A stretch of 37,312 bases of DNA from positions 1-37,312 of IMG/VR virus record IMGVR_UViG_3300043540_000062; one strand, given 5' to 3'. This document shows, in pieces, positions 1 through 37,312 of the stretch; positions within the stretch are counted from its first letter, which is position 1, and the number at the start of each line of letters is the position of its first letter. This DNA is from a virus. Under the pieces are notes generated by a model, which saw nothing but the letters and a program-made list of their open reading frames with translations, was not told the origin of the DNA and searched no databases. Both the position numbers and the translations under genes were made by a program.

Positions 1-127
1 CAAACGATGGTATCTTTGGTAAGACTGACGACCATGTGCCGTTGTTTTGCCCCTGTATCGTAATGCCGATAACGCCATAGACGCCTCGTGTTCGATAATC
101 TTGGAGCTGGGCGGCAATAGATTCAAA
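1..127. repeat. Terminal direct repeat copy 1 (= 37186..37312); circular-assembly overlap
   Basis: caaacgatggtatctttggtaag...ggcggcaatagattcaaa occurs base-for-base at both window ends (127 nt). It lies inside a continuous reading frame. Confidence 0.97.
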
Positions 128-15571: not shown

Positions 15572-16615
15572 TTATACTCCAGCGATACCAGTCAAGACTG
15601 CATTCCTAAACGGAGCTGTACAAAGGAGCTGACCGCCGAGAATGATAAATCCATTGATAGTACCCATGTTGTACGGGCGAATCCAACCAGTCCACGTAAA
15701 CGCATTACCTGGAGCATAGATAGAATCTTCATACACGTTACCCTCGATGTCATGAGCCTTCGGGGAAATCTTCGAACCTTCCCACCAGTTAAGACCATAG
15801 AACTTCAAATAATCGAGGTTGAGAAGGTAGAAATTACCGGTGAGAATCTTCTTGTCGCGGAAAACCATCATGCCATCCCAGATAAGATCTGAGTAACCAG
15901 ATGCTGATGCTTTCTCAGACTTACCAACTTCAAAAGAAGTCATGGTGTTGCGCTGAAATGGCGAGAGCAACTGTTCGAAGTAAGCCCAAGTTGTATAGTC
16001 TGTGACAATCATGTCAGGACGAACTGGACCATCGGAAATCGAATTCCAAAGAGTACGAACTTTCAAAAGAGAAATCGTACCAGATGAGGGGGTAACTGTT
16101 GCGGATAAACCTGGATAGGTTGCACGTGAAAGGCCACCGTATGAGGCCACATTCGTACCATCGTCAACGATACCAGCAAGACCCATCGGAGCCTTACCAG
16201 CCGAAGCTGAACCGTCACCCTGGAAGAAGTTACCAATATCATCGGCGGCATCTTGTGCACGCGATTCCATCGTAACTTTCATGAGGTCGAGAGTTTTTAA
16301 CGTGCCATTGCCTTCTGCCTTGTTTACAGAGAGGTCGGAACCAGCGAGAGCAATGTTCGTAGCGACAAATGTCGGGTAGAAGAACATGTTAACGGTCGTC
16401 GGAATCTGGTTGATAGGAAGAACATCGAATCCATTGAACGGGACCGATGCGACACCCTTCTGGTACTTAACAGGGAAGAGCATCTGTGAACCGCGCCACT
16501 TCTCGGTATTCTCAAGAATCTTTCCAAAGAAGAGGTTATCGCGGAGAACCTGGTCGACCCAAGCAGGGGCGAGATACTGGTTCGTAGTTGAGGTAATTGA
16601 AACGCCTGGAGGCAT
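15572..16615 (-). CDS. Major capsid protein (by position and size)
   Basis: 347 aa, immediately downstream of the acidic scaffold-like gene and two genes after the portal block. No sequence motif recognised by eye. Confidence 0.65.
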   Translation of the reverse strand: MPPGVSITSTTNQYLAPAWVDQVLRDNLFFGKILENTEKWRGSQMLFPVKYQKGVASVPFNGFDVLPINQIPTTVNMFFYPTFVATNIALAGSDLSVNKAEGNGTLKTLDLMKVTMESRAQDAADDIGNFFQGDGSASAGKAPMGLAGIVDDGTNVASYGGLSRATYPGLSATVTPSSGTISLLKVRTLWNSISDGPVRPDMIVTDYTTWAYFEQLLSPFQRNTMTSFEVGKSEKASASGYSDLIWDGMMVFRDKKILTGNFYLLNLDYLKFYGLNWWEGSKISPKAHDIEGNVYEDSIYAPGNAFTWTGWIRPYNMGTINGFIILGGQLLCTAPFRNAVLTGIAGV

Positions 16616-18533: not shown

Positions 18534-20375
18534 TTAGTGAGGTAATGGAACGTTTGATAATGCGGCGCTAGCCGGCACTCCACCAGTAGAACCTGGCGGC
18601 TGTGATTCTAATGGTGTACCTCCTTGCCCAGGCTGTGGGGCACCTCCCGTGGCTTGCTGTCCTGCCAGTTGTTGTGCAATCTCGGGCCAATTCATTGACA
18701 AATACGCTTGTGGAGCAAGTTTATACACCATAAACTGTCCAGCAGTTTCCTTTGCATTTGGAAAATGTAAACGAGTAAGAAGTGTAAGTGGATCAATGGC
18801 CCCCGCTTCCCAGAGAGACAGCGCCTGGTTCATATCCGTTATTTCATCATGTGGCTTCATGCTGTCTGGTGATACAGAAACAATGAGCCGCCCGGTTAGG
18901 TCTTGGGCAGATAGTTCTATATATTGCGTGGCTTGCAACTGTCCCATGATTGAGGCTACATGCGGTACATCGTAATAGACGTAATATTCTTGAACCCACC
19001 AGTTAAATACATTCTTGGCAAACTGTTCAAGAGCATCACCAATGCCACCTCCAATACGGGAATTATCGTACTGATGCTTTAGTATCATACCCCTGGCTGT
19101 TTCATTCTGGTCTTGACCTGATGCAGTTATTCCTTCGGTCCCGAATATAGAACGCAGGTTCTCTATGTTATTTTCGAGGTCTCGGAAAAAGTCTGATGGA
19201 AGTGAAGGAGCTGGTATATCAACTACCGCTTCTCGAATAGGGCCACCAGCAGGTACAAGCGCGGGGTGTCCTTTGGTCTTAGCGACTGCAAATTGCTTGG
19301 CGGTTTCCTGATTAAAGTTATTAGACGACAGGATAGTTGAATTGTTTGCACGTGAAATGTTGTAGTCAATCTGTTCAACACGACGTGATATGAGCCTCTG
19401 GTTTGGAATGTTCTGCTCAATAAGCGAAGTGACATCATGAGGCTGATTACCGAACGAGAACACGGATAGGAATGTGTACGGCTTCTTAGGAACCCCAAAA
19501 TGGTTGTGCCCTTTGACTGTCTCGGTCTCTCCACCTATTCCCACTTCATCTCGGTCATAATTGAAGTGTGGATTCTTGTGCTTATCAAGTATCTTATTCT
19601 TGTAGGTATAAAAGCAGAAATTATCGTCCCACCATTCGGTATAAGTAACATCGGTACCCATCTTGCCATCAACCATAACAGTGATGAACCCTTTATGATT
19701 CGGGAACATCTCAACTAACCGATTTGCGGTAACGGTAATACGTTCGCCAAGAATTCCAATAAAGTCTCCGTACATATCAACATATCCAGTTGGGTCGAAT
19801 ATGAAATTCTTGACGTCACGGACTTCACACTTTATATCCTCAATTTTTTCGTTCCACCCATGTTTAATGACGCCTAAATAGTCAATTGTCCAGTTGCGGG
19901 TTACTAATTCCATCTTACGACGAAGAACAAGTGCATCAGCATGATACTGAAGCATGGTCTTTACTGCGTCGGATATAGCGTTCCCTTGTGGTGAATTGTC
20001 TGCCCATACAACAGGCTCAGGGTTGCGAGAAAGAGCGGCGGGTAGGAATGTCTCAACTGCCTCAAAAATGAAGTTTCCCGCAACTGGTGAGTCTGAAGTG
20101 GTTGCGGTACCTTCTTTCTGGCGTCCGAGGTAGTACTGCATGGACGCCTGTTGTTTCAGACGAATTTTAGATTCGTAAGTGGCGTATCGTGACTCATACT
20201 TCTTAGCAAGAAGGATAAGCTCTTCGTCACTTTGTTCAATAGAAAATGAGTCTATCTTCTCTCCGATTATACCCTCAGCTTGAGAGGATGCGGACATAGA
20301 TATATTTTTGTTTATCTTTGATGAGATAAGGTTTTGTACACCATCGATATTCATCTGAAACGCGTCTTTAGCCAT
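18534..20375 (-). CDS. Portal protein
   Basis: 613-aa ORF, one small gene after the large terminase. Size and position are typical of portals. Confidence 0.8.
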   Translation of the reverse strand: MAKDAFQMNIDGVQNLISSKINKNISMSASSQAEGIIGEKIDSFSIEQSDEELILLAKKYESRYATYESKIRLKQQASMQYYLGRQKEGTATTSDSPVAGNFIFEAVETFLPAALSRNPEPVVWADNSPQGNAISDAVKTMLQYHADALVLRRKMELVTRNWTIDYLGVIKHGWNEKIEDIKCEVRDVKNFIFDPTGYVDMYGDFIGILGERITVTANRLVEMFPNHKGFITVMVDGKMGTDVTYTEWWDDNFCFYTYKNKILDKHKNPHFNYDRDEVGIGGETETVKGHNHFGVPKKPYTFLSVFSFGNQPHDVTSLIEQNIPNQRLISRRVEQIDYNISRANNSTILSSNNFNQETAKQFAVAKTKGHPALVPAGGPIREAVVDIPAPSLPSDFFRDLENNIENLRSIFGTEGITASGQDQNETARGMILKHQYDNSRIGGGIGDALEQFAKNVFNWWVQEYYVYYDVPHVASIMGQLQATQYIELSAQDLTGRLIVSVSPDSMKPHDEITDMNQALSLWEAGAIDPLTLLTRLHFPNAKETAGQFMVYKLAPQAYLSMNWPEIAQQLAGQQATGGAPQPGQGGTPLESQPPGSTGGVPASAALSNVPLPH

Positions 20376-20591: not shown

Positions 20592-20783
20592 CTACATACG
20601 CAAATGCGTGTGGATGTCAATAACCCGGATAACACCATCTGCATCGAGGTGAACTTCAAAACTTCCTCCCTTAGTGTTAAACACCCCCGCTCGCAACAGG
20701 GTATTTATGAGATGACGATTCTTTACAAACTCTACATAGAGTTTAGCTTCTTCATCTGATAGGTATACGGTATTCTGGTTCAT
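20592..20783 (-). CDS. Small hypothetical protein
   Basis: 63-aa ORF. 4-nt overlap with the TerL stop. Confidence 0.55.
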   Translation of the reverse strand: MNQNTVYLSDEEAKLYVEFVKNRHLINTLLRAGVFNTKGGSFEVHLDADGVIRVIDIHTHLRM

Positions 20784-22339
20784 ATATCTAAATGTAATCC
20801 ACGGGTATTATCAATTGGTATTTCGTCCCATACGTCACCTCCAATTATCTGGGCCATTGTTTCTTGGAACTTCTCCAGCCCTACACGAGCATAAATTGAA
20901 CACATAACAAAGTGGTCGGGTCCAGAACGTTCCCACTTAAAGCCCTTAGTCTTATCTATCTGTCCTGATTCGTCTTTCTCCCATGTGCGATAGATATTGA
21001 GCCAGTGAATAATATATTCCTGCCAGTCGCTTTCTGATCCGTTAAATGTCACGCGTTTATCCGTCATTTCATCTATAAACCACTGAATATATCTATTACG
21101 GTCTACTACAACTTTTCCATACTCAACACCATCACCCCAAGTTGCAAGCTCCATAGTCTTCTGATTGGCCCTAAACCATACGAGGAACACGCGGCCTGGA
21201 TATTTAGCCTGTAGGTTTCTAATACCTATGAGGTCTCCACCTTGGTCTGCCATTATAATTGAATTAGGGAATCGACGTAGGAGCCCTTCCAATTCAAGGT
21301 ATGGGTCTCTCCCCGATAGTGGGTCTGAGCACTTACCATAGAAGAAATATCCCTGCTTATTGGCGAGAACATAGTGAATGGGGAGACCTGTATCTACGCC
21401 GATGATTATTCTGTCTTCCTGTGTATTTACTTTATCGCTTAAACACTTAATGATAATAGACGCGTTCACTTTGTTACCTGAGCCTGTATAGGGGAGTCCT
21501 GCTACGAAGTTGGAGAAATACTCTGGCGTCTTGGTACGTTTGTATTCAGTGATGTTGTGGGCGTTAAACATTGGGTTAATCCATAAAGGAATCCAATAGC
21601 CTGACCATGCACCCTTTGCGGTAGCAATCCATTCTCCCATACGCCTTTCCTCGTCGGTTATTTCAGCCAGGCACTTGGGGCAAACGAACTGCTCTTTGGT
21701 GTAATCTATACATGCTTCATCTAGTACATAATTAGCTCCACACTTATGGGTGATGTGCCACTTCTTCTTGTCAGATAGTCTCCAATACTTGTCTATACCA
21801 AAGTCGGGAATGGTAGGGTTCGAAAAAAACGCCTTACGTGGATTAGTTGAGTGCTGCAGGCGTGAGTCGTATTGTTCAACTATCTCAGGCTTACATCGGT
21901 CTAGTTCATCGACAATGAGCTTTTTAGCTGTAATCATCAATGCCGCTCTCTCGGTCCAACTTCCTCGATAATAGATAGTAGCTTTGCCAACGCGTTTTTG
22001 TTCAATTGAGTCCTTATCTTTCGTCCATGTTTGGAGGATAGGATTGTTATCAATAATCCTATTAGTCTTTCCGCCCGAAAACTGTTTAACGTCATCAGCC
22101 GTGGGCAATACGTATATCGTGTCTTGGTTCTCGTTGTATGCTTCATGAAGTGATTTGAGTATCTCGTAAGTAGTGAACCCTATCTGAGCGGCTTTGATTG
22201 CCATAATGAAAGGGGAACGGTCTGCGTATATATCAAATAGGAATCTGTGTGTCTTGAAGTCAATTGGGTCACCACGCTCTGTTTTGATGGCGTTCTCAAG
22301 GATGAAAGCATGCAGCGATCCTTGTGCTAATAGACTCAT
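20780..22339 (-). CDS. terL: Terminase large subunit, GpA-like
   Basis: 519 aa. KAAQIGFTTYEILKS resembles the lambda gpA-type Walker A region. LIVDELD is Walker-B-like. An internal zinc ribbon (CPKC) occurs as in the GpA family. A portal gene lies downstream. Confidence 0.88.
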   Translation of the reverse strand: MSLLAQGSLHAFILENAIKTERGDPIDFKTHRFLFDIYADRSPFIMAIKAAQIGFTTYEILKSLHEAYNENQDTIYVLPTADDVKQFSGGKTNRIIDNNPILQTWTKDKDSIEQKRVGKATIYYRGSWTERAALMITAKKLIVDELDRCKPEIVEQYDSRLQHSTNPRKAFFSNPTIPDFGIDKYWRLSDKKKWHITHKCGANYVLDEACIDYTKEQFVCPKCLAEITDEERRMGEWIATAKGAWSGYWIPLWINPMFNAHNITEYKRTKTPEYFSNFVAGLPYTGSGNKVNASIIIKCLSDKVNTQEDRIIIGVDTGLPIHYVLANKQGYFFYGKCSDPLSGRDPYLELEGLLRRFPNSIIMADQGGDLIGIRNLQAKYPGRVFLVWFRANQKTMELATWGDGVEYGKVVVDRNRYIQWFIDEMTDKRVTFNGSESDWQEYIIHWLNIYRTWEKDESGQIDKTKGFKWERSGPDHFVMCSIYARVGLEKFQETMAQIIGGDVWDEIPIDNTRGLHLDI

Positions 22340-22641
22340 AGGTCTTTCTTTAACTTCTTCTCAAACTCATCTATGACAGCTTTGTGTTTGGGGTCAAGTA
22401 CGATTGATTCACCCGCTGAAGTTATGTCTGTTTTATTCTCAGGGTTACCTTCTCCCATCTTCCATATAAGTTCTTTAGGCAATCCATCCATAAAATCTTC
22501 TCTTTCTTCGTCAGACATACATGATAAATACTCTCGGACATAATCCTTTAATGTCTTGCCTTTGGGCCGTCCTTTAGGATTTCCACTTTGTCCTTTCTGC
22601 CAAAGGTGTTTCTTGTTTTCAGACTGTTTATCAGATTCCAT
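22336..22641 (-). CDS. Small terminase-like protein
   Basis: 101 aa. WQKGQSGNPKGRPKG motif is common in phage small-terminase-like (DUF5681-type) proteins. 4-nt overlap with the TerL start. Confidence 0.6.
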   Translation of the reverse strand: MESDKQSENKKHLWQKGQSGNPKGRPKGKTLKDYVREYLSCMSDEEREDFMDGLPKELIWKMGEGNPENKTDITSAGESIVLDPKHKAVIDEFEKKLKKDL

Positions 22642-22650
22642 ATTACAACA

Positions 22651-22794
22651 TTATTCCTTATGTTTGTCTTTAGTTAACTCTTTACGAATGAAGCATTTCT
22701 CGCATATCCAACCTACAGCTTGTTCATACCGTATGATTGGTATATCTGTTGGGTATACTTTCTTACATTTTACGCACTCATAAGTGACAATCAT
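22651..22794 (-). CDS. Zinc-ribbon mini-protein (47 aa)
   Basis: Below the ORF-track cutoff. MIVTYECVKCKKVYPTDIPIIRYEQAVGWICEKCFIRKELTKDKHKE (CxxC...CxxC). ATGA overlap with the upstream ORF. Confidence 0.45.
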   Translation of the reverse strand: MIVTYECVKCKKVYPTDIPIIRYEQAVGWICEKCFIRKELTKDKHKE

Positions 22795-22946
22795 TTTGGT
22801 AAGTTTTTTCTAATTTCTTTGGCACATTTACTACACAGTAGACTTTGAGAAGTAACAGGTTCATATATTGTAGGAACTACGAAAGAGCGTTTTCGAATTA
22901 TGAATCTTCTTTTGCGGCAGGCTTCACACTTGGATAAAAACTTCAT
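22791..22946 (-). CDS. Zinc-ribbon mini-protein (51 aa)
   Basis: Below the ORF-track cutoff. MKFLSKCEACRKRRFIIRKRSFVVPTIYEPVTSQSLLCSKCAKEIRKNLPK (CxxC...CxxC). ATGA overlap with the GroEL-like stop. Confidence 0.45.
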   Translation of the reverse strand: MKFLSKCEACRKRRFIIRKRSFVVPTIYEPVTSQSLLCSKCAKEIRKNLPK

Positions 22947-24448
22947 CGAGGTTGCATTCTTAGGTTCATTGCTTTAATTTCTTCTTTAATTTCCGCGGGA
23001 ATGGTAATAACTCCTTTGGTAGTAAGTATAATACCAGCTATGGAGATTGCGTTGGTTATCGCGGATTTTATTACTATTGCAGGGTCAATTATACCATCTA
23101 TTCTCAATTGATGTCCATCTGTACCGAGAATATGGGAGGGTTCATTCAATGCTGTAGCGAGTATTTTGGCTCCAATCGTGTCTGTGAGTGACCTTGAGGC
23201 TACTTCTAGAGATTGGCCTGACCCAGTGACTACCCCTTCTTGAAGTGCCCAATATGAGGCGTGTGTTGCGTCCTTTGACTTCTTAATCTTCCATGAAAGT
23301 TCTGAGTCACTGTGTGCTCCGACCTTTAAGACAGCGACCTTTGTATTGAGCCACGACGCACGAACTAGTTGTTGGTCGTCCTTTAGTCCGGCAATCTTTA
23401 AGGTTTCAATATAGTCCTTTACGTCTTTTATACCCATGACGCGTGTCTCTTCTTTTGAACAAACTAATTTCTCACAAGTTCCTAAGTGTTCAGCTTTCAA
23501 AGTTGAGAAAGTCTTACCTATTCGACTATCCACAGGTTGTGCACCGGTTATCTTAGAAAAATCCTCATATAACCAATCTTTCCACAAAATAGGAGCTTTT
23601 ATGATAAGAAACTTCATTGGTATCTTATCATTAGGCAAATCCCCATTCAGTGTTTGTACAGTATTTTTAGCGAGCGTGGAAGCTACCATAAGCTCAATGT
23701 CCTCACAGTATATGACAAGTTCATTTATACTCTGAGCACGTAACTCTTTTATGACTGGTAATATCTGCTTTACATCAGTTATTTTATCTTTAGTAATCAG
23801 AATCCTGGGATTCTTGAGTATGCACTTACCGTCTTCGGTCTGCCAATATCCTCCGAACCAACCTGACCTAATTCGTATTCCCTCAATAACTTCATAATAA
23901 GTGTCAGGAAGAGTTGAAGGTTCAATCTCAACAATGCCGTCACGACCAATCTCTTTGTAGGCATCTCCGATTATCTTGCCAAGTTCTGGTGATTCAGACG
24001 CAGTCGTCGCTATTGAATGAACATCACTCGGTTCAATTGGCTTCGTCTGATCGTCAATCGATTTAATTAGCACTGGCAAACAGTCATCCAGTTGTCGCTT
24101 AAGTTCAAGTGGTGTTATTTGGTCTGTTACTTTAATTCCTTCATTTAGAATTGAAGTGGTGAGTATAATAGTAGTCTTGCGTCCGTCACCTGCTTCTTTG
24201 TCTTGTCTCTCACATGCTTCATTCAAGATATTTGCGCCTATTTGCTCGATTGGATCAGCAAGCAAAATACAATTAGATATAAGTTTGCCGTCATTGCTTA
24301 CACGGTGTCCAGGGGATTGATTTTCCTCAATTACCACATTACTACCGTTTGGTCCGTAAGTTGGTTTAATAACGTTACACACCTTATTAACTCCCCCAAT
24401 AAGTTTGAGCAATGACTGTTCGTAATTAGCTATATTGTCTATTTTCAT
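22943..24448 (-). CDS. groEL: GroEL-like group I chaperonin (Cpn60 family)
   Basis: 501 aa, collinear with E. coli GroEL. Matches include [128 protein letters not shown] and [50 protein letters not shown]. There is no GGM tail. Confidence 0.9.
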   Translation of the reverse strand: [501 protein letters not shown]

Positions 24449-24660
24449 ATTTTTTGGTATTCAATATCATACTCTGGCATATATGGTTTCAGTGCCATAC
24501 GAAGATGTGAGTTAAGATAAATGTCGTTTGGCGTGTTATTTCTAAAAAATTCTGTCTTTCCACACTTGTAACAATACTCCTCTAAACCATCTGGCCACTG
24601 CCTAAGTATAAGCCAGTCATGGAGCCACAAACCATTACCGCATTTACTCTGTTCCCACAT
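24445..24660 (-). CDS. Cys-containing small protein between the GroES-like and GroEL-like genes (71 aa)
   Basis: ORF track gives 24445..24744. Met at 24660 (MWEQSKCGNG...EEYCYKCGKTEFF) minimises overlap with the GroES-like gene; an alternative start is 24702. ATGA overlap with the GroEL-like ATG. Confidence 0.5.
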   Translation of the reverse strand: MWEQSKCGNGLWLHDWLILRQWPDGLEEYCYKCGKTEFFRNNTPNDIYLNSHLRMALKPYMPEYDIEYQKI

Positions 24661-24910
24661 GGTATATTCCCAATATAAAGTCTTCGTGCATCCGTACGAC
24701 ATAGTGCTTCTTTCCTTCAAATTCTGGTGTCTCAAAGAAACCATGAGGCCGGAAGAAAATAATGTCTCCTGTTTTTATTCTAGGATTAATAACTCCTCCC
24801 GCCACAGATAGCACCTTAGCGGCTTCTACAAATTTCTTATCATCAGAAGAAAGACCAGTATCTAAAGAAATGGGTTCAACTTCGACATAATTACTGAAAG
24901 GTGAAAACAT
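24644..24910 (-). CDS. groES: GroES-like co-chaperonin (Cpn10/gp31-like)
   Basis: ORF track gives 24644..24931; Met at 24910 follows the stop of the upstream mini-ORF. The layout is GroES-like: FSNYVEVEP...(mobile-loop-like DTGLSSDDKK)...AKVLSVAGGVINPRIKTGDIIFF...KKHYVVRMHEDFILGI, compared with P..DRVIVK...G.VLAVG.G....VKVGD.V.F......Y.I..E.DILAI. Confidence 0.7.
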   Translation of the reverse strand: MFSPFSNYVEVEPISLDTGLSSDDKKFVEAAKVLSVAGGVINPRIKTGDIIFFRPHGFFETPEFEGKKHYVVRMHEDFILGIYHVGTE

Positions 24911-24911
24911 A

Positions 24912-25079
24912 TTAAGAGAGGTCGATGTCATCGACAGGATTATTAGGATTTATAAATTCAACTTTCTTTGACCTAAAGTTTTTCAATTTCGTTTGAACTT
25001 CTCTTTTGTATGCCAATATATTTAATATAGACAGCAGTATACCAATAACAATACCAATTATTAAATAGAGGAAATTCAT
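24912..25079 (-). CDS. Small N-terminally membrane-anchored protein (55 aa)
   Basis: Below the ORF-track cutoff. MNFLYLIIGIVIGILLSILNILAYKREVQTKLKNFRSKKVEFINPNNPVDDIDLS. ATGA overlap with the glycosyltransferase stop. Confidence 0.45.
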   Translation of the reverse strand: MNFLYLIIGIVIGILLSILNILAYKREVQTKLKNFRSKKVEFINPNNPVDDIDLS

Positions 25080-25711
25080 ATAAATATTTCTTTTAGGTGA
25101 GACGCAAACAGATCAGTATCACACCAAATATCTATCCCTTTCTCTTCAGCCTTTTTGCAGAAGGTAACATCTTCTCCAAAATAGACCACGTGCTTTTCAT
25201 CTAACCACTTAGTCTCAAACCACGGTTCAGGTATCTTTTCAAGTGCTCGCCTATGTATCAAAAGAAAACCTGTTGCAATGATACTTACTTTTTGCAAACC
25301 AGTGTTTCTTTGTACTCTCGGCGAACCATCAAGCGTCTTTCCAATTGCGTGCAATAGAAACGCGCTCGTACCAATTATAATGCCACCAGATTTATCATTT
25401 GTAACTAAGTTATATACACCGCCAATTATGTCTTTTTTATGTCGCATGAGTGCTTTTATATCACCCAAGTTAGGTACAGTGTCACTATCAATAAATAGCA
25501 AATATTTTCTTCGGGTTTTTAGGAACTCTCTAACACAAATATTCCGATTATCATCTATGAGAGGCCCTTGAACCATATTTACACTAGCGCCCAGTGCTGA
25601 CCATTTTATCAACTTCATGACAAGTGAAACAGTCAGCTTTCCGTTCTGTGGCACTGGTATAGCAATAAACACATCTTTTAATGGTTTGATAAACATAGAC
25701 GGTAAAATCAT
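25076..25711 (-). CDS. Glycosyltransferase, GT2-like
   Basis: 211 aa. YLLFIDSDTVP is a DxD motif in a Rossmann-like context. IIATGFLLIHRRALEKI is typical of GT-A family 2 enzymes. Confidence 0.6.
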   Translation of the reverse strand: MILPSMFIKPLKDVFIAIPVPQNGKLTVSLVMKLIKWSALGASVNMVQGPLIDDNRNICVREFLKTRRKYLLFIDSDTVPNLGDIKALMRHKKDIIGGVYNLVTNDKSGGIIIGTSAFLLHAIGKTLDGSPRVQRNTGLQKVSIIATGFLLIHRRALEKIPEPWFETKWLDEKHVVYFGEDVTFCKKAEEKGIDIWCDTDLFASHLKEIFI

Positions 25712-25917
25712 TTTGCTAATTCATTCTGTATTGGTGACAAAGTTCCTTTATCACGTCGGTCAATAGGTATCAATTGCGTGATGGTAGTAAAACCAGTCTT
25801 ACCTGATGGAACATATTGAGGATAAGCCATCAATACCACTTCATATTTCTGACACAAAGCATCATACTCTTTTATAAAACTATCCACCCTTTCGTTAGGG
25901 TTTTTTTGGTTATTCAT
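25708..25917 (-). CDS. Hypothetical protein, first gene of a leaderless transcript
   Basis: 69-aa ORF. TGATATAAT lies 6 nt upstream of the ATG. 4-nt overlap with the GT start. Confidence 0.55.
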   Translation of the reverse strand: MNNQKNPNERVDSFIKEYDALCQKYEVVLMAYPQYVPSGKTGFTTITQLIPIDRRDKGTLSPIQNELAK

Positions 25918-25935: not shown

Positions 25936-25964
25936 ATAAAAGCCCCTGCATAGGGGCCTTTTAT
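25936..25964 (-). terminator. Intrinsic terminator (bidirectional geometry)
   Basis: ataaaaGCCCCtgcataGGGGCcttttat: a GC stem flanked by an A-run and a T-run. Lies between the 26068-block and ORF 25708..25917. Confidence 0.65.
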
Positions 25965-27286: not shown

Positions 27287-27889
27287 TTATTTGTTGGCTT
27301 CATAAAATGCTTTTGCAAATCCTTTAGGAGTAATAGACCTGCGGATTTGAACAGGTTTCATTTTTCCGTCTTGTTTATAATCTTCCGGTATTGGTGGTAA
27401 GGGGCGAGTATTATTTCGGGATTGTATAATTTCTTTAGCGTTTAGTTTTATTGGTTTCTTTTTTGGCTCATTAAAATTACCCCAAATGAATGTCTGTTTT
27501 GAGTGTCTATCTCCAAAATCGTATGGGTGAAACTTAAAAGGTGGTTTACCCATAAAGCGTTGTAGGTGTCCAGCTGGGTTTTCCATAGCCCAAAACTTCA
27601 AACCAAATCGGTTATCAAATTGGCTTTCCCAAATTATTCTCAAACAAGCACGGACTATCTCCATAGCTCCACGAAAATCTCTTGGTGTTTTTGCAGTAGT
27701 TCGAGCACGAGAGAACATAGTGCAAGGCGGAGCTGCCAATATACCATAGACATCTTTAGGTGGCTTGTAAGTTAAAACATCGTATTCCGGTAGTGTAATA
27801 ACACTCACATCATAACCATTATCTTTATAAAACTTACTCCACGCCCCTGTTCCCCCACACAAATCAAGTATTATTTTTTCTTTATTCAT
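27287..27889 (-). CDS. Minimal DNA (cytosine-5) methyltransferase-like protein
   Basis: 200 aa. ILDLCGGTGAW matches motif I (FxGxG-like). ILAAPPCTMFS matches motif IV (PC). FWAMENPAG matches motif VI (ENV-like). No recognisable target-recognition domain or motifs IX/X. Confidence 0.65.
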   Translation of the reverse strand: MNKEKIILDLCGGTGAWSKFYKDNGYDVSVITLPEYDVLTYKPPKDVYGILAAPPCTMFSRARTTAKTPRDFRGAMEIVRACLRIIWESQFDNRFGLKFWAMENPAGHLQRFMGKPPFKFHPYDFGDRHSKQTFIWGNFNEPKKKPIKLNAKEIIQSRNNTRPLPPIPEDYKQDGKMKPVQIRRSITPKGFAKAFYEANK

Positions 27890-32947: not shown

Positions 32948-34393
32948 ATGCCTACACGAATAGAAAAACTCACGCAGAAGCAAAAAGATGCTATGCCTGC
33001 ATATAGAGATATGTGGATTGCAAAAGGATTACAGACTGGCGAGACTGATTGGGATACCTTTGATAAGTACATGCCGATTTGCTATGAAAAGGCTGGCATC
33101 TCTTATCCGAAACGCGTTGTTAGGGTAATGTCACCAATGGTCGGGGCGTTTGCAGCAGCGATAGCTGAAGGGATATTGCGAAAAAGGGACAACGCAATTG
33201 GCGACGAAGTTATCGGCGAAGTTCGCAACGCAGTTGGCAACGCAGTTAGCAACTCAGTTGGCGTCGCAGTTAGAGGCGCAGTTGGCGTCGCAGTTGGCGG
33301 CGCAGTTGGAGACGCAGTTAGCGGCGCAGTTAACGGCGCAGTTAGAGGCGCAGTTGGCGTCGCAGTTGGCGGCGCAGTTGTAGACGCAGTTGGAGACGCA
33401 GTTGGCGGCGCAGTTAACGGCGCAGTTGGAGGCGCAGTTAGCGGCGCAGTTGGCGTCGCAGTTAGAGGCGCAGTTGGCGTCGCAGTTGTAGACGCAGTTA
33501 GAGGCGCAGTTAGAGGCGCAGTTGGCGGCGCAGTTGGAGACGCAGTTGGAGACGCAGTTCGCAACGCAGTTGGCGTCGCAGTTGGAGACGCAGTTAGAGG
33601 CGCAGTTAACGGCGCAGTTAGCGTCGCAGTTCGCAACGCAGTTAGCGGCGCAGTTGGAGACGCAGTTGGTAACCTAATAAAAGCCGGTGTACCAATATCA
33701 GAGCATTACTGGTTTGGTGGTCAGTTTTGGGTTGGAGGTTGGTATTGGGGTGTCTCATTTGTAAACTTTTTCTTTGACGTCTGTGGATTAAAGTTCGAAA
33801 AAGACATCATGGAACGAGCACTTGCTTATCGTAAGGTATGTGAATCGGTAAATTACATATGGCCAAACCGAGACTTCGTCATGGTGTGTGCTCGACCAAC
33901 AAAGATTTCGAGGAATGTTTTAGGCCAACTTCATTGCGAAAATGGCATGGCTATTCAATACCCTGATGGTTGGGGTCTTTATCTTCTTAACGGTGTGAGG
34001 TTCGATGAGACACTCTACAAAAAAGTGATTGACCCATCATGGCCATTCTCAGAACGCATGAAGATCGTAGATATTGACCAGAGAACACAAGCTATTAACC
34101 CGAAGTTCTGCGATATAGACGCATTCATCAAAGAGGCAAAAGGTGAATTGCTCGATGAGCGTACTAAATACGATATCGACGCAAATCCTGGCAACTATAA
34201 GCTCTATAAGTTCCCCAGAGGACCTATATTCACCGAAGACGCATACTATTGCTATTTTGACTGTCCTTCGACTGGTAAGAAGCACTTAGAGGGCGTAGAA
34301 GTCGCCAAGACAGTGGCGGAGGCAATGGCATGGGCAGAGGATATTACCGTGCAAGACTGGGAGAATCGAATACCCCTCGTTCATGAAAATTAA
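32948..34393 (+). CDS. Tetrapeptide-repeat protein with DUF6745-like C-terminal domain
   Basis: 481 aa. An 85-aa N-terminal region is followed by 39 tandem x-A-V-x tetrapeptides. The C-terminal domain has QLHCENGMAIQYPDGWGLYLLNGVRF and VAKTVAEAMAWAEDI, which match my recollection of the DUF6745 family (LHCEDGPA..Y.DGW..Y..HGV..P ... A.EA.AWTFG). Confidence 0.8.
   Translation: MPTRIEKLTQKQKDAMPAYRDMWIAKGLQTGETDWDTFDKYMPICYEKAGISYPKRVVRVMSPMVGAFAAAIAEGILRKRDNAIGDEVIGEVRNAVGNAVSNSVGVAVRGAVGVAVGGAVGDAVSGAVNGAVRGAVGVAVGGAVVDAVGDAVGGAVNGAVGGAVSGAVGVAVRGAVGVAVVDAVRGAVRGAVGGAVGDAVGDAVRNAVGVAVGDAVRGAVNGAVSVAVRNAVSGAVGDAVGNLIKAGVPISEHYWFGGQFWVGGWYWGVSFVNFFFDVCGLKFEKDIMERALAYRKVCESVNYIWPNRDFVMVCARPTKISRNVLGQLHCENGMAIQYPDGWGLYLLNGVRFDETLYKKVIDPSWPFSERMKIVDIDQRTQAINPKFCDIDAFIKEAKGELLDERTKYDIDANPGNYKLYKFPRGPIFTEDAYYCYFDCPSTGKKHLEGVEVAKTVAEAMAWAEDITVQDWENRIPLVHEN
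33203..33670 (+). repeat. 39 tandem copies of a 12-nt unit (cgcagttNNNNN) encoding x-A-V-x
   Basis: Read directly. The gca-gtt (Ala-Val) core is nearly invariant at nucleotide level. Flanking codons alternate among ggc/gtc/gac/aac and ggc/aga/agc/aac/gta/cgc. Confidence 0.95.
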
Positions 34394-35081
34394 ATATGAA
34401 TATATGAAATATAAACTAACATCAAAATCAATCACTCAATGGTCAGGCAAAGTTTTATTCCAAATAGAAGCAACTGTTTCTTTTGGTTTAATTAACAAAG
34501 GGGAACTTGGTGGTTATGTAGAAAAGGAAAGCAATCTTAGTCAAGATGATGACGCTTGGGTCTATGGTAACGCTCGGGTCTATGGTAACGCTCAGGTCTA
34601 TGGTAACGCTCGGGTCTATGGTAACGCTCGGGTCTATGGTAACGCTCAGGTCTCTGGTGACGCTCAGGTCTCTGGTGACGCTTGGGTCTATGGTAACGCT
34701 TGGGTCTCTGGTGACGCTTGGGTCTCTGGTGACGCTTGGGTCTCTGGTAACGCTCAGGTCTATGGTGACGCTTGGGTCTCTGGTGACGCTTGGGTCTCTG
34801 GTGACGCTCAGGTCTCTGGTGACGCTCAGGTCTCTGGTAACGCTTGGGTCTGTCTAAAATCCTCATTTACTAAGGGCTGGTTCATTGGTGGAGGTGATTC
34901 AGGGAAGATTACAGATATTACAGAAAAGACTGGCTCAACTTATTGGAAGAATCAATACGTACTTGGAGACTATGAGATTACTCCGATAGAGGATGAGAAT
35001 AAAAAGGAGGAAGAATCTCTCTCAGGTCAGGAGGTTACTGTGACGGTAGCAGGTAAGATGTATAAGGCAGTAATTAAATGA
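34383..35081 (+). CDS. Hexapeptide-repeat (left-handed beta-helix-type) protein
   Basis: 232 aa. N-terminal ...INKGELGGYVEKESNLSQDDDAW, then 17 copies of [ND]-A-[RQW]-V-[YS]-G. 11-nt overlap with the upstream gene. Confidence 0.8.
   Translation: MKIKYEYMKYKLTSKSITQWSGKVLFQIEATVSFGLINKGELGGYVEKESNLSQDDDAWVYGNARVYGNAQVYGNARVYGNARVYGNAQVSGDAQVSGDAWVYGNAWVSGDAWVSGDAWVSGNAQVYGDAWVSGDAWVSGDAQVSGDAQVSGNAWVCLKSSFTKGWFIGGGDSGKITDITEKTGSTYWKNQYVLGDYEITPIEDENKKEEESLSGQEVTVTVAGKMYKAVIK
34551..34856 (+). repeat. 17 tandem copies of an 18-nt unit (gRc gct YRg gtc tMt ggt)
   Basis: Read directly. Only four nucleotide positions per unit vary: aac/gac, cgg/cag/tgg and tat/tct. Confidence 0.95.
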
Positions 35082-36994: not shown

Positions 36995-37312
36995 TTATAT
37001 ACCCGACGGCTTCATTGCGCCATAGATGAACGGTTGCCAGTCCTCGGTAAGATATTGCTGACCGTTATTCCCGATTGATGTGCCCCATGAGTTGTCTACA
37101 ACTAATACTTTTTGTCCATTTACCAGTCCAAAGTCGGTGACCGTTAGGCGGTGATACCAAGCGGACGGATCGGGAGAGAGCGGGGCAAACGATGGTATCT
37201 TTGGTAAGACTGACGACCATGTGCCGTTGTTTTGCCCCTGTATCGTAATGCCGATAACGCCATAGACGCCTCGTGTTCGATAATCTTGGAGCTGGGCGGC
37301 AATAGATTCAAA
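36995..37312 (-). CDS. 3' part of the same papain-like peptidase ORF (37186..37312 duplicates 1..127)
   Basis: ...PSAWYHRLTVTDFGLVNGQKVLVVDNSWGTSIGNNGQQYLTEDW...GAMKPSGI*. His and N-S-W-G motifs match papain HAV.../NSWG..WG..GY. Stop TAA = reverse complement of 36995..36997. Confidence 0.75.
   Translation of the reverse strand, partial: FESIAAQLQDYRTRGVYGVIGITIQGQNNGTWSSVLPKIPSFAPLSPDPSAWYHRLTVTDFGLVNGQKVLVVDNSWGTSIGNNGQQYLTEDWQPFIYGAMKPSGI
37186..37312. repeat. Terminal direct repeat copy 2 (= 1..127)
   Basis: Identical to bases 1..127. Confidence 0.97.

Follow-up and report, generated by a model that had tools for sequence, protein, structure and literature searches.

A GroES-GroEL-like gene pair with an altered nucleotide pocket in a clade of uncultured phages of about 40 kb

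Phages that carry both partners of a group I chaperonin have been described before. GroES>GroEL and GroEL>GroES operons were reported on 133 of 337 GroEL-bearing virome contigs, together with mobile-loop variants and roof-hairpin deletions, and the genomes of GroEL phages were inferred to be larger than 70 kb (Marine et al., 2017; PMC5649160); both homologues were also found to be present in some phages by Bracher et al. (2020; PMC7185714). We analysed the IMG/VR virus record IMGVR_UViG_3300043540_000062 over its whole length of 37,312 nucleotides (hereafter the window), in which a GroEL-like and a GroES-like gene are found with a small gene for a Cys/His protein between them (aa, amino acids):

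24644..24910, minus strand: GroES/Cpn10-like co-chaperonin, 88 aa (fold, hhalign, synteny)
24445..24660, minus strand: Cys/His protein, 71 aa (JGI gene call P0145, clade conservation)
22943..24448, minus strand: GroEL-like group I chaperonin, 501 aa (Pfam PF00118, PHROG 5725)

A sequence-only reading of the window had placed two chaperonin open reading frames (ORFs) at 22943..24448 and 24644..24910 on the minus strand, where both were indeed found, and had assumed that jumbo phages are the only source of phage GroELs and that these act without a co-chaperonin. The latter is contradicted by the two studies (PMC5649160, PMC7185714), by the Flavobacterium elemo phages and by Cellulophaga phage Calle_1, and as phage GroES-GroEL pairs are already documented, the central claim of novelty made for this locus fails. 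What is new is a clade with small genomes of 37-43 kb, a fixed pocket variant that is coupled to the loss of a segment, and a conserved third gene.

Among GenBank phages, 219 records matched the window GroEL, all with less than 31% identity. The smallest bona fide genomes among the 100 matches listed were those of the elemo podophages (~60 kb), with GroEL and GroES adjacent, followed as next smallest among the matches listed by Calle_1 (73 kb) with the order Cpn10, small ORF, GroEL. Like the window, these virioplankton and cultured-phage operons (Marine et al., 2017; phi38:1, Calle_1, elemo) combine a divergent group I GroEL with its own co-chaperonin on the same strand, and Calle_1 also has a small gene between cpn10 and groEL, the product of which is however unrelated to the Cys/His protein. 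In contrast to the window, their genomes have 60-100 kb instead of 37-43 kb, the identity is only ~28-30%, their P-loop reads GDGTTT or near-canonical instead of GDGRKTT, and an adjoining terminase is a feature of the window cassette. The jumbo-phage chaperonins (EL gp146, OBP gp246 and that of Bacillus phage AR9) are, like the window protein, phage Cpn60 homologues lacking a GGM tail, but stem from phages of >200 kb with no known co-chaperonin, while the window has 37 kb and a GroES-like gene. They tend to form single rings, a likeness that is derived for the window only from lost inter-ring contact residues. When compared with EL-like Pseudomonas phages by tblastn, the window GroEL reached a query coverage of ~29% (E ~1e-6); it is closer to bacterial group I chaperonins, and unlike in the jumbo-phage proteins it is the pocket that has changed. 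T4 gp31 and RB49 CocO share with the window a co-chaperonin of GroES fold without the full roof hairpin, but T4 gp31 has a longer mobile loop and serves the host GroEL; a GroEL gene is absent from T4.

We consider it likely that the GroEL/GroES-like pair of the window acts as a ring-lid foldase for virion proteins. Seven GroEL-like subunits would assemble into a ring and bind capsid, portal or tail proteins of the phage in their non-native state, a heptamer of the GroES-like protein would cap this ring through its short mobile loop, and nucleotide hydrolysis would drive the release of the substrate, whereby the folding of virion proteins would become independent of host GroEL/ES. The homology of both proteins to GroEL and GroES is itself near certain.

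The GroEL-like protein and its nucleotide pocket

The 501-aa ORF passed the Pfam model PF00118 (Cpn60_TCP1) with 115.7 bits at a cut-off of 34.3 (E 3e-33) and matched PHROG 5725 'chaperonin groEL' at 2e-70. Sequence matches in the PDB comprised 49 distinct group I chaperonins at E<=1e-20, with a reconstructed ancestral Fibrobacteres-Chlorobi-Bacteroidetes GroEL (5.6e-59) and Thermus GroEL as the best. Residues ~12-482 aligned with solved GroEL chains, and alignment with E. coli GroEL (reference identical to PDB 4pkn_G) led to 27% identity and a collinear equatorial-intermediate-apical-intermediate-equatorial layout, confirming the collinearity with bacterial GroEL that had been noted for this ORF. 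Judged from these alignments, the 501-aa protein is an unambiguous Cpn60/GroEL homologue.

With the E. coli system (PDB 1AON, 4PKN) the window shares the collinear domains, the residues D52, D87, D398 and D495, the GroES barrel and the order groES, then groEL. Differences to E. coli GroEL are deletions of 8 residues at 429-436 and of ~27 residues at ~460-486, a 10-residue apical insertion after helix I, changes of L31, T89, T90, G415 and R197, and the absence of the C-terminal GGM repeat tail. The missing tail and the GDGRKTT loop, both pointed out in the sequence-only reading, were seen in this alignment as well; the GGM tail is not universal in GroELs. At the apical face, hydrophobic or aromatic residues are kept at 199, 203, 204, 234 and 237, and R197 is not conserved.

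In E. coli numbering, the pocket of the window protein reads TYGP at 30-33, GDGRKTT at 86-92 and GSG at 414-416. GDGTTT is among the most conserved motifs of all chaperonins, and GDGRKTT represents a same-length substitution (T89R/T90K) that is accompanied by the changes L31Y and G415S. An explanation of GDGRKTT as insertion or sequencing error was rejected, as its length equals that of GDGTTTA and it is fixed in 74 independent cluster representatives. These derive from a search for GroEL homologues in 5.8 billion proteins, which led to 196 homologues at E<=1e-30, the best 120 of which (37-68% identity to the window protein) were analysed. R89/K90 was detected in 74 of these 120 (hereafter the RK group), with TT, ST or SS in the remaining 46. 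Y31 was present in all 74 RK members and in a single one of the others, 45 of which carry L, M or I, and T92 was enriched in the RK group. Most of the equivalent of E. coli 458-490 was missing in 59/74 RK members, compared with 2/46 of the others. In GroEL this segment includes the 476-485 hairpin with N479, A480 and A481 as contacts to the adenine, and also carries the inter-ring contacts E461, S463 and V464.

D52 and D398 were found in 74/74 RK members, D495 in 73/74 and D87 as 69 D plus 4 E, and the glycines G32, G35, G414 and G416 were invariant or nearly so throughout the group. The window protein has all four aspartates and retains the GIIDP motif with D495. The fixation of the catalytic aspartates and glycines in the RK group indicates purifying selection on the site and not decay. 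We infer that an RK-type GroEL would still be a hydrolase that grips the nucleotide differently, with Y31, R89 and K90 compensating for the lost nucleotide contacts. RK/Y31 was absent from >50 other viral GroELs from IMG/VR and from the elemo and Calle phage GroELs, and 'GDGRKT' occurred in no paper of the library searched. Two further loci carry parts of the variant: the GroEL of L005 shows Y31 with canonical GDGTTT and full hairpin, and that of L031 reads KDGRTTM with R89 only. From their sequences both would fit as intermediate stages in the evolution of the pocket.

The inter-ring contacts of double-ring GroEL (R452, E461, S463, V464, K105 and A109) are affected too. Positions 461-464 lie inside the deletion, R452 is changed to H, and the A109 column is gapped in the whole clade. 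Deletion of these contacts suggests that the GroEL-like ring is probably single rather than double. A possible but tentative reading is that the RK-type proteins represent an undescribed mechanistic subclass of group I chaperonin with a single ring, a pocket re-engineered by Y31/R89/K90, a minimal GroES and perhaps the Cys/His protein as third component. If so, Y31/R89/K90 could replace the adenine-contact hairpin and possibly a monovalent-cation requirement or the T89/T90 phosphate contacts, and no smaller self-contained chaperonin system would be known from a virus.

The GroES-like protein and its tie to GroEL

The start of the 88-aa ORF is identical to that of JGI gene call P0001. Of the two profile matches to be expected for a GroEL/GroES pair, the one to Cpn60 (PF00118) was clear as described above, whereas Pfam Cpn10 (PF00166) gave only 12.6-13 bits for the window protein and thus stayed under the cut-off of 21.1. 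PHROG 3188 (GroES) was matched with E 0.0025. A profile of the 88-aa family found nothing but a spurious L22 match among PDB sequences, and tblastn of the protein against GenBank phages led to a single insignificant match in Vibrio phage 1.273.O (E 0.3) that is unrelated to chaperonins. The protein has 23 homologues of 45-66% identity with the invariant core GDIIFFRPHGFFE..E..GKKHYVVR...EFILG. Cpn10 matches, even weak ones, were observed in only 2/23 of these close homologues, and some orthologues showed weak matches to the ADH_N 'GroES-like' domain. One may therefore ask whether the 88-aa ORF encodes no co-chaperonin, but a chance GroES-like barrel or another small barrel such as an ADH_N-like domain.

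We regard this as very improbable from the predicted structure and from the related loci. The AlphaFold2 model of the 88-aa protein (predicted local distance difference test, pLDDT, 79) is all-beta, and in a Foldseek search of the PDB its top 31 matches were all GroES, Cpn10 or gp31 (template modelling score, TM, 0.55-0.67), that is, true co-chaperonins, with 8wuw_a as best match (E 1e-4, TM 0.65), T4 gp31 (1g31_A) at TM 0.62 and dehydrogenases only at E>0.3. The named top matches in a viral structure library were all 'Co-chaperonin GroES'. Comparison of the family with canonical GroES by hhalign, using a reference alignment that includes E. coli GroES checked against 1aon_O, gave an end-to-end collinear alignment of 81 columns (probability 82%, E 1e-5). 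The positional orthologues in related loci matched Cpn10 at E<=0.01 in 17/24 cases, six of them passing the Pfam gathering score, and were reached by the hidden Markov model of the window family at E down to 1e-18; moreover, the 88-aa gene is always adjacent to the GroEL locus. Therefore, from the conserved gene, the predicted fold, the profile-profile alignment and the positional orthologues, the 88-aa protein is taken to be a highly divergent GroES, as had been proposed for it earlier.

A mobile-loop-like segment of 15 residues (~15-29) is predicted between the strands 8-14 and 30-36, with pLDDT <50 at 19-23. It is ~6 residues shorter than in E. coli GroES, and the roof hairpin, fuller in E. 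coli, is reduced. The loop reads T-G-L-S in the window and G-V-L-V in close relatives at the equivalent of E. coli G24-I25-V26-L27.

The ~200-bp gap that the sequence-only reading had seen between the two genes is not intergenic, as its ~195 nt are occupied by the conserved 71-aa gene, which shares 17 nt with the end of the GroES-like gene and 4 nt (ATGA) with the beginning of the GroEL gene. The GroES-like ATG in turn sits 1 nt past the stop of the gene for a 55-aa membrane protein. A common gene order is found in the ~29 clade loci with upstream sequence, namely ~75-aa protein, ~55-aa membrane protein, GroES-like, Cys/His, GroEL, (DUF5681, candidate small terminase), large terminase and portal, and hardly any clade locus lacks the GroES-like gene. 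These overlapping or abutting genes and the clade synteny agree with the earlier view of both partners in one tightly packed operon next to morphogenesis genes. From this arrangement the GroES-like, Cys/His and GroEL-like genes are predicted to be translationally coupled and to head the terminase-portal-capsid operon. Pairwise identities of the GroEL and GroES-like proteins were correlated (Mantel r = 0.52, reached in 0/2000 permutations), which fits a vertical co-inheritance of the cassette.

The match to T4 gp31 (1g31_A, TM 0.62) and the lack of a full roof hairpin, which the GroES-like proteins of the clade share with gp31, could also mean that the GroES-like protein serves mainly the host GroEL, as T4 gp31 does, and that the phage GroEL works alone, as in EL, OBP and AR9; lone viral GroES genes are in fact far commoner than GroEL genes (PMC5649160). 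To us this appears distinctly unlikely, as the two genes are found side by side and in translational coupling across the clade, their divergence is correlated, the mobile loop is ~6 residues shorter than in cellular GroES, and the most divergent GroES-like type (FFRPHGFFE core) accompanies the most derived GroEL type, as expected of co-adapting partners.

Several observations weigh against a ring-lid foldase. Of the five canonical segments that contact ATP, the window protein has lost or altered four, canonically TLGP at 30-33, DGTTT at 87-91, G415 and NAA at 479-481, and ATP binding is not guaranteed. Apical helix I carries the substitutions L259A, V263A and V264K. The GroES-like protein of the window stays below the Pfam threshold, and its loop tripeptide G-L-S (V-L-V in relatives, I-V-L in E. 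coli) implies that lid binding could be weak or altered. Finally, linked genes share their ancestry, so that a correlated divergence is expected anyway and is no proof of interaction. The altered or deleted ATP-contact segments, the missing GGM tail and the degenerate hydrophobic tripeptide of the window loop could be explained as well by an RK GroEL-like protein without an ATP-driven cycle, that is, a passive holdase or assembly scaffold next to which the GroES-like protein has a different or vestigial role. The phage EL chaperonin, which prevents aggregation and does not refold rhodanese, would be a precedent (Bracher et al., 2020; PMC7185714). Nevertheless, we consider a holdase unlikely, because the (near-)invariance of D52, D87, D398, D495, G32, G35, G414 and G416 in the 74 RK members is difficult to account for unless nucleotide chemistry is involved, R89/K90/Y31 show fixation and not drift, and the GroES-like gene is kept in almost every clade locus. 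We thus prefer the ring-lid foldase.

The third gene, the genome and its clade

The 71-aa protein shows the invariant residues S5, C7, H14, C30, C33 and H52 (S-x-C ... WLH ... C-x2-C ... YH), and its gene lies directly upstream of GroEL in all of the ~29 clade loci with upstream sequence. Its family has 74 representatives among 1.84 billion cluster representatives, nearly all of 60-90 aa, and profile searches of the family against Pfam and the PDB gave no match; AlphaFold2 modelling from 4 sequences led to a pLDDT of 53.5, judged unusable. By its residue pattern the protein is probably zinc-binding. In a second phage group (L044, L050, L052, L053), a homologous domain is part of a 150-aa ORF that follows GroES-GroEL and immediately precedes the terminase. 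Due to this position beside the terminase, the tie of the domain may be to packaging or morphogenesis as much as to the chaperonin, and the 71-aa protein is probably a conserved accessory of the morphogenesis module. A 99-aa reading of the ORF 24445..24744, raised as an argument against the GroES-like gene, was rejected, as homologues and the JGI call place the start at 24660.

An exact direct terminal repeat of 127 bp (positions 1..127 = 37186..37312) indicates that the window is a complete genome, circular in the assembly, with 37,185 unique bp. Terminase, portal (18534..20375), major capsid (15572..16615) and tail proteins are encoded on the minus strand, as are the chaperonin genes, and replication genes (O-like initiator, DnaB-like helicase, NinG-like) on the strand opposite to the structural genes; a search of the window genome for tRNA and integrase genes found none. 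In the window, an uncultured tailed phage is represented by its entire genome of ~37.2 kb, and with the terminal repeat, terminase, portal, capsid, tail and replication genes the description as a 37-kb phage stands. An origin of the chaperonin genes from host DNA or from a chimeric assembly was also considered, since some GroEL-matching 'phage' records in GenBank, short Listeria, Enterococcus and Staphylococcus entries without annotation, resemble contaminating bacterial sequence. Such an origin is effectively refuted by the closed genome with its direct terminal repeat, the position of the cassette between phage genes with overlapping frames, the same arrangement on dozens of independent viral contigs, the low identity (<=30% to any GenBank phage GroEL, 27% to E. 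coli GroEL) and the absence of the clade from 185,579 GTDB species genomes bar one weak match.

For 40 of the 120 analysed homologues the longest contigs had 35-43 kb, and only one was longer (83,776 bp). IMG/VR holds >528 viral contigs with GroEL relatives, and those scoring as members of the clade have <=43 kb. For the terminase, no cultured relative exceeded 25% identity. Its profile gave no match in the 185,579 GTDB species genomes, in which the GroEL clade profile led to one 31% match on a 4-kb contig of a metagenome-assembled genome; with the clade nearly absent from these genomes, no host can be assigned and there is no sign of prophages. From its distribution and synteny, the chaperonin cassette appears as a hallmark of an uncultured clade of ~37-43 kb phages, in which it is vertically inherited. 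The one longer contig (L009; NCBI GCA_040384425.1, JAWVGW010000323.1) belongs to a metagenome-assembled genome and carries a DUF397 gene nearby and a VWA-domain gene after GroEL; as 83,776 bp is exactly 2 x 41,888, a ~42-kb phage may be present in it as concatemer.

The neighbourhood of the cassette contains the following features:

25938..25961, terminator-like on both strands: GC-rich hairpin AAAGGCCCCTATGCAGGGGCTTTT (consensus scan only)
25708..25917, minus strand: 69-aa conserved protein, first gene of the conserved block (clade synteny)
25076..25711, minus strand: glycosyltransferase-like gene (phrog_1574, phrog_34859)
24912..25079, minus strand: 55-aa single-pass membrane protein with C-terminal NP.D.IDL motif, ending NPVDDIDLS in the window (ORF list, clade loci)
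22651..22946, minus strand: two tiny ORFs (47 and 51 aa) with zinc-ribbon-like CxxC...CxxC spacing, between the GroEL and DUF5681 genes
22336..22641, minus strand: DUF5681 protein, candidate small terminase (Pfam PF18932 3.2e-9; order shared with relatives)
20780..22339, minus strand: large terminase subunit, overlapping the DUF5681 gene (PHROG 675 1.1e-75, Pfam GpA_ATPase)

As the large terminase gene overlaps the DUF5681 gene, the chaperonin cassette heads the operon for packaging and morphogenesis. The hairpin just upstream of the block is likely a transcription-unit boundary, judging from its sequence, and a promoter scan found sites no commoner in the window than in shuffled sequence. Throughout the clade, the GroES-like gene is preceded by the conserved genes for the 69-aa protein and for the 55-aa membrane protein, the latter with only weak LapA/holin-like matches in Pfam and PHROG. 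In the window alone, this block is interrupted between the two by the glycosyltransferase-like gene, which is missing at the same site in the closest relative (L008) and is thus a probable insertion. The tiny CxxC ORFs are not conserved in L008 either, where an unrelated 64-aa ORF is found at that place. Apart from the cassette, the replication module ends with a gene (34383..35081, plus strand) whose product shows YdcK beta-solenoid repeats and a match of bactofilin type (Pfam 7e-25, PHROG 5070 2e-74), which is unusual in a small phage, and a DNA methyltransferase gene (27287..27889, minus strand; phrog_757, 1.3e-31) separates the arm with the structural and chaperonin genes from the replication arm.

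Meaning for phage chaperonin systems

A full GroES-GroEL system is not confined to phages with large genomes, which counters the published inference of >70 kb. With this clade, nature has also varied the active site of GroEL, and biochemical work on the window protein could show which nucleotide contacts are dispensable and whether Lys or Arg can substitute for them. The compact, perhaps single-ring proteins of the clade could also be practical as a minimal chaperonin in co-expression or structural studies. For the phages themselves, a clade with genomes of ~40 kb devotes ~5% of its genome to the chaperonin system, and one or another of their structural proteins probably depends strictly on a chaperonin and is beyond the capacity of the host system.

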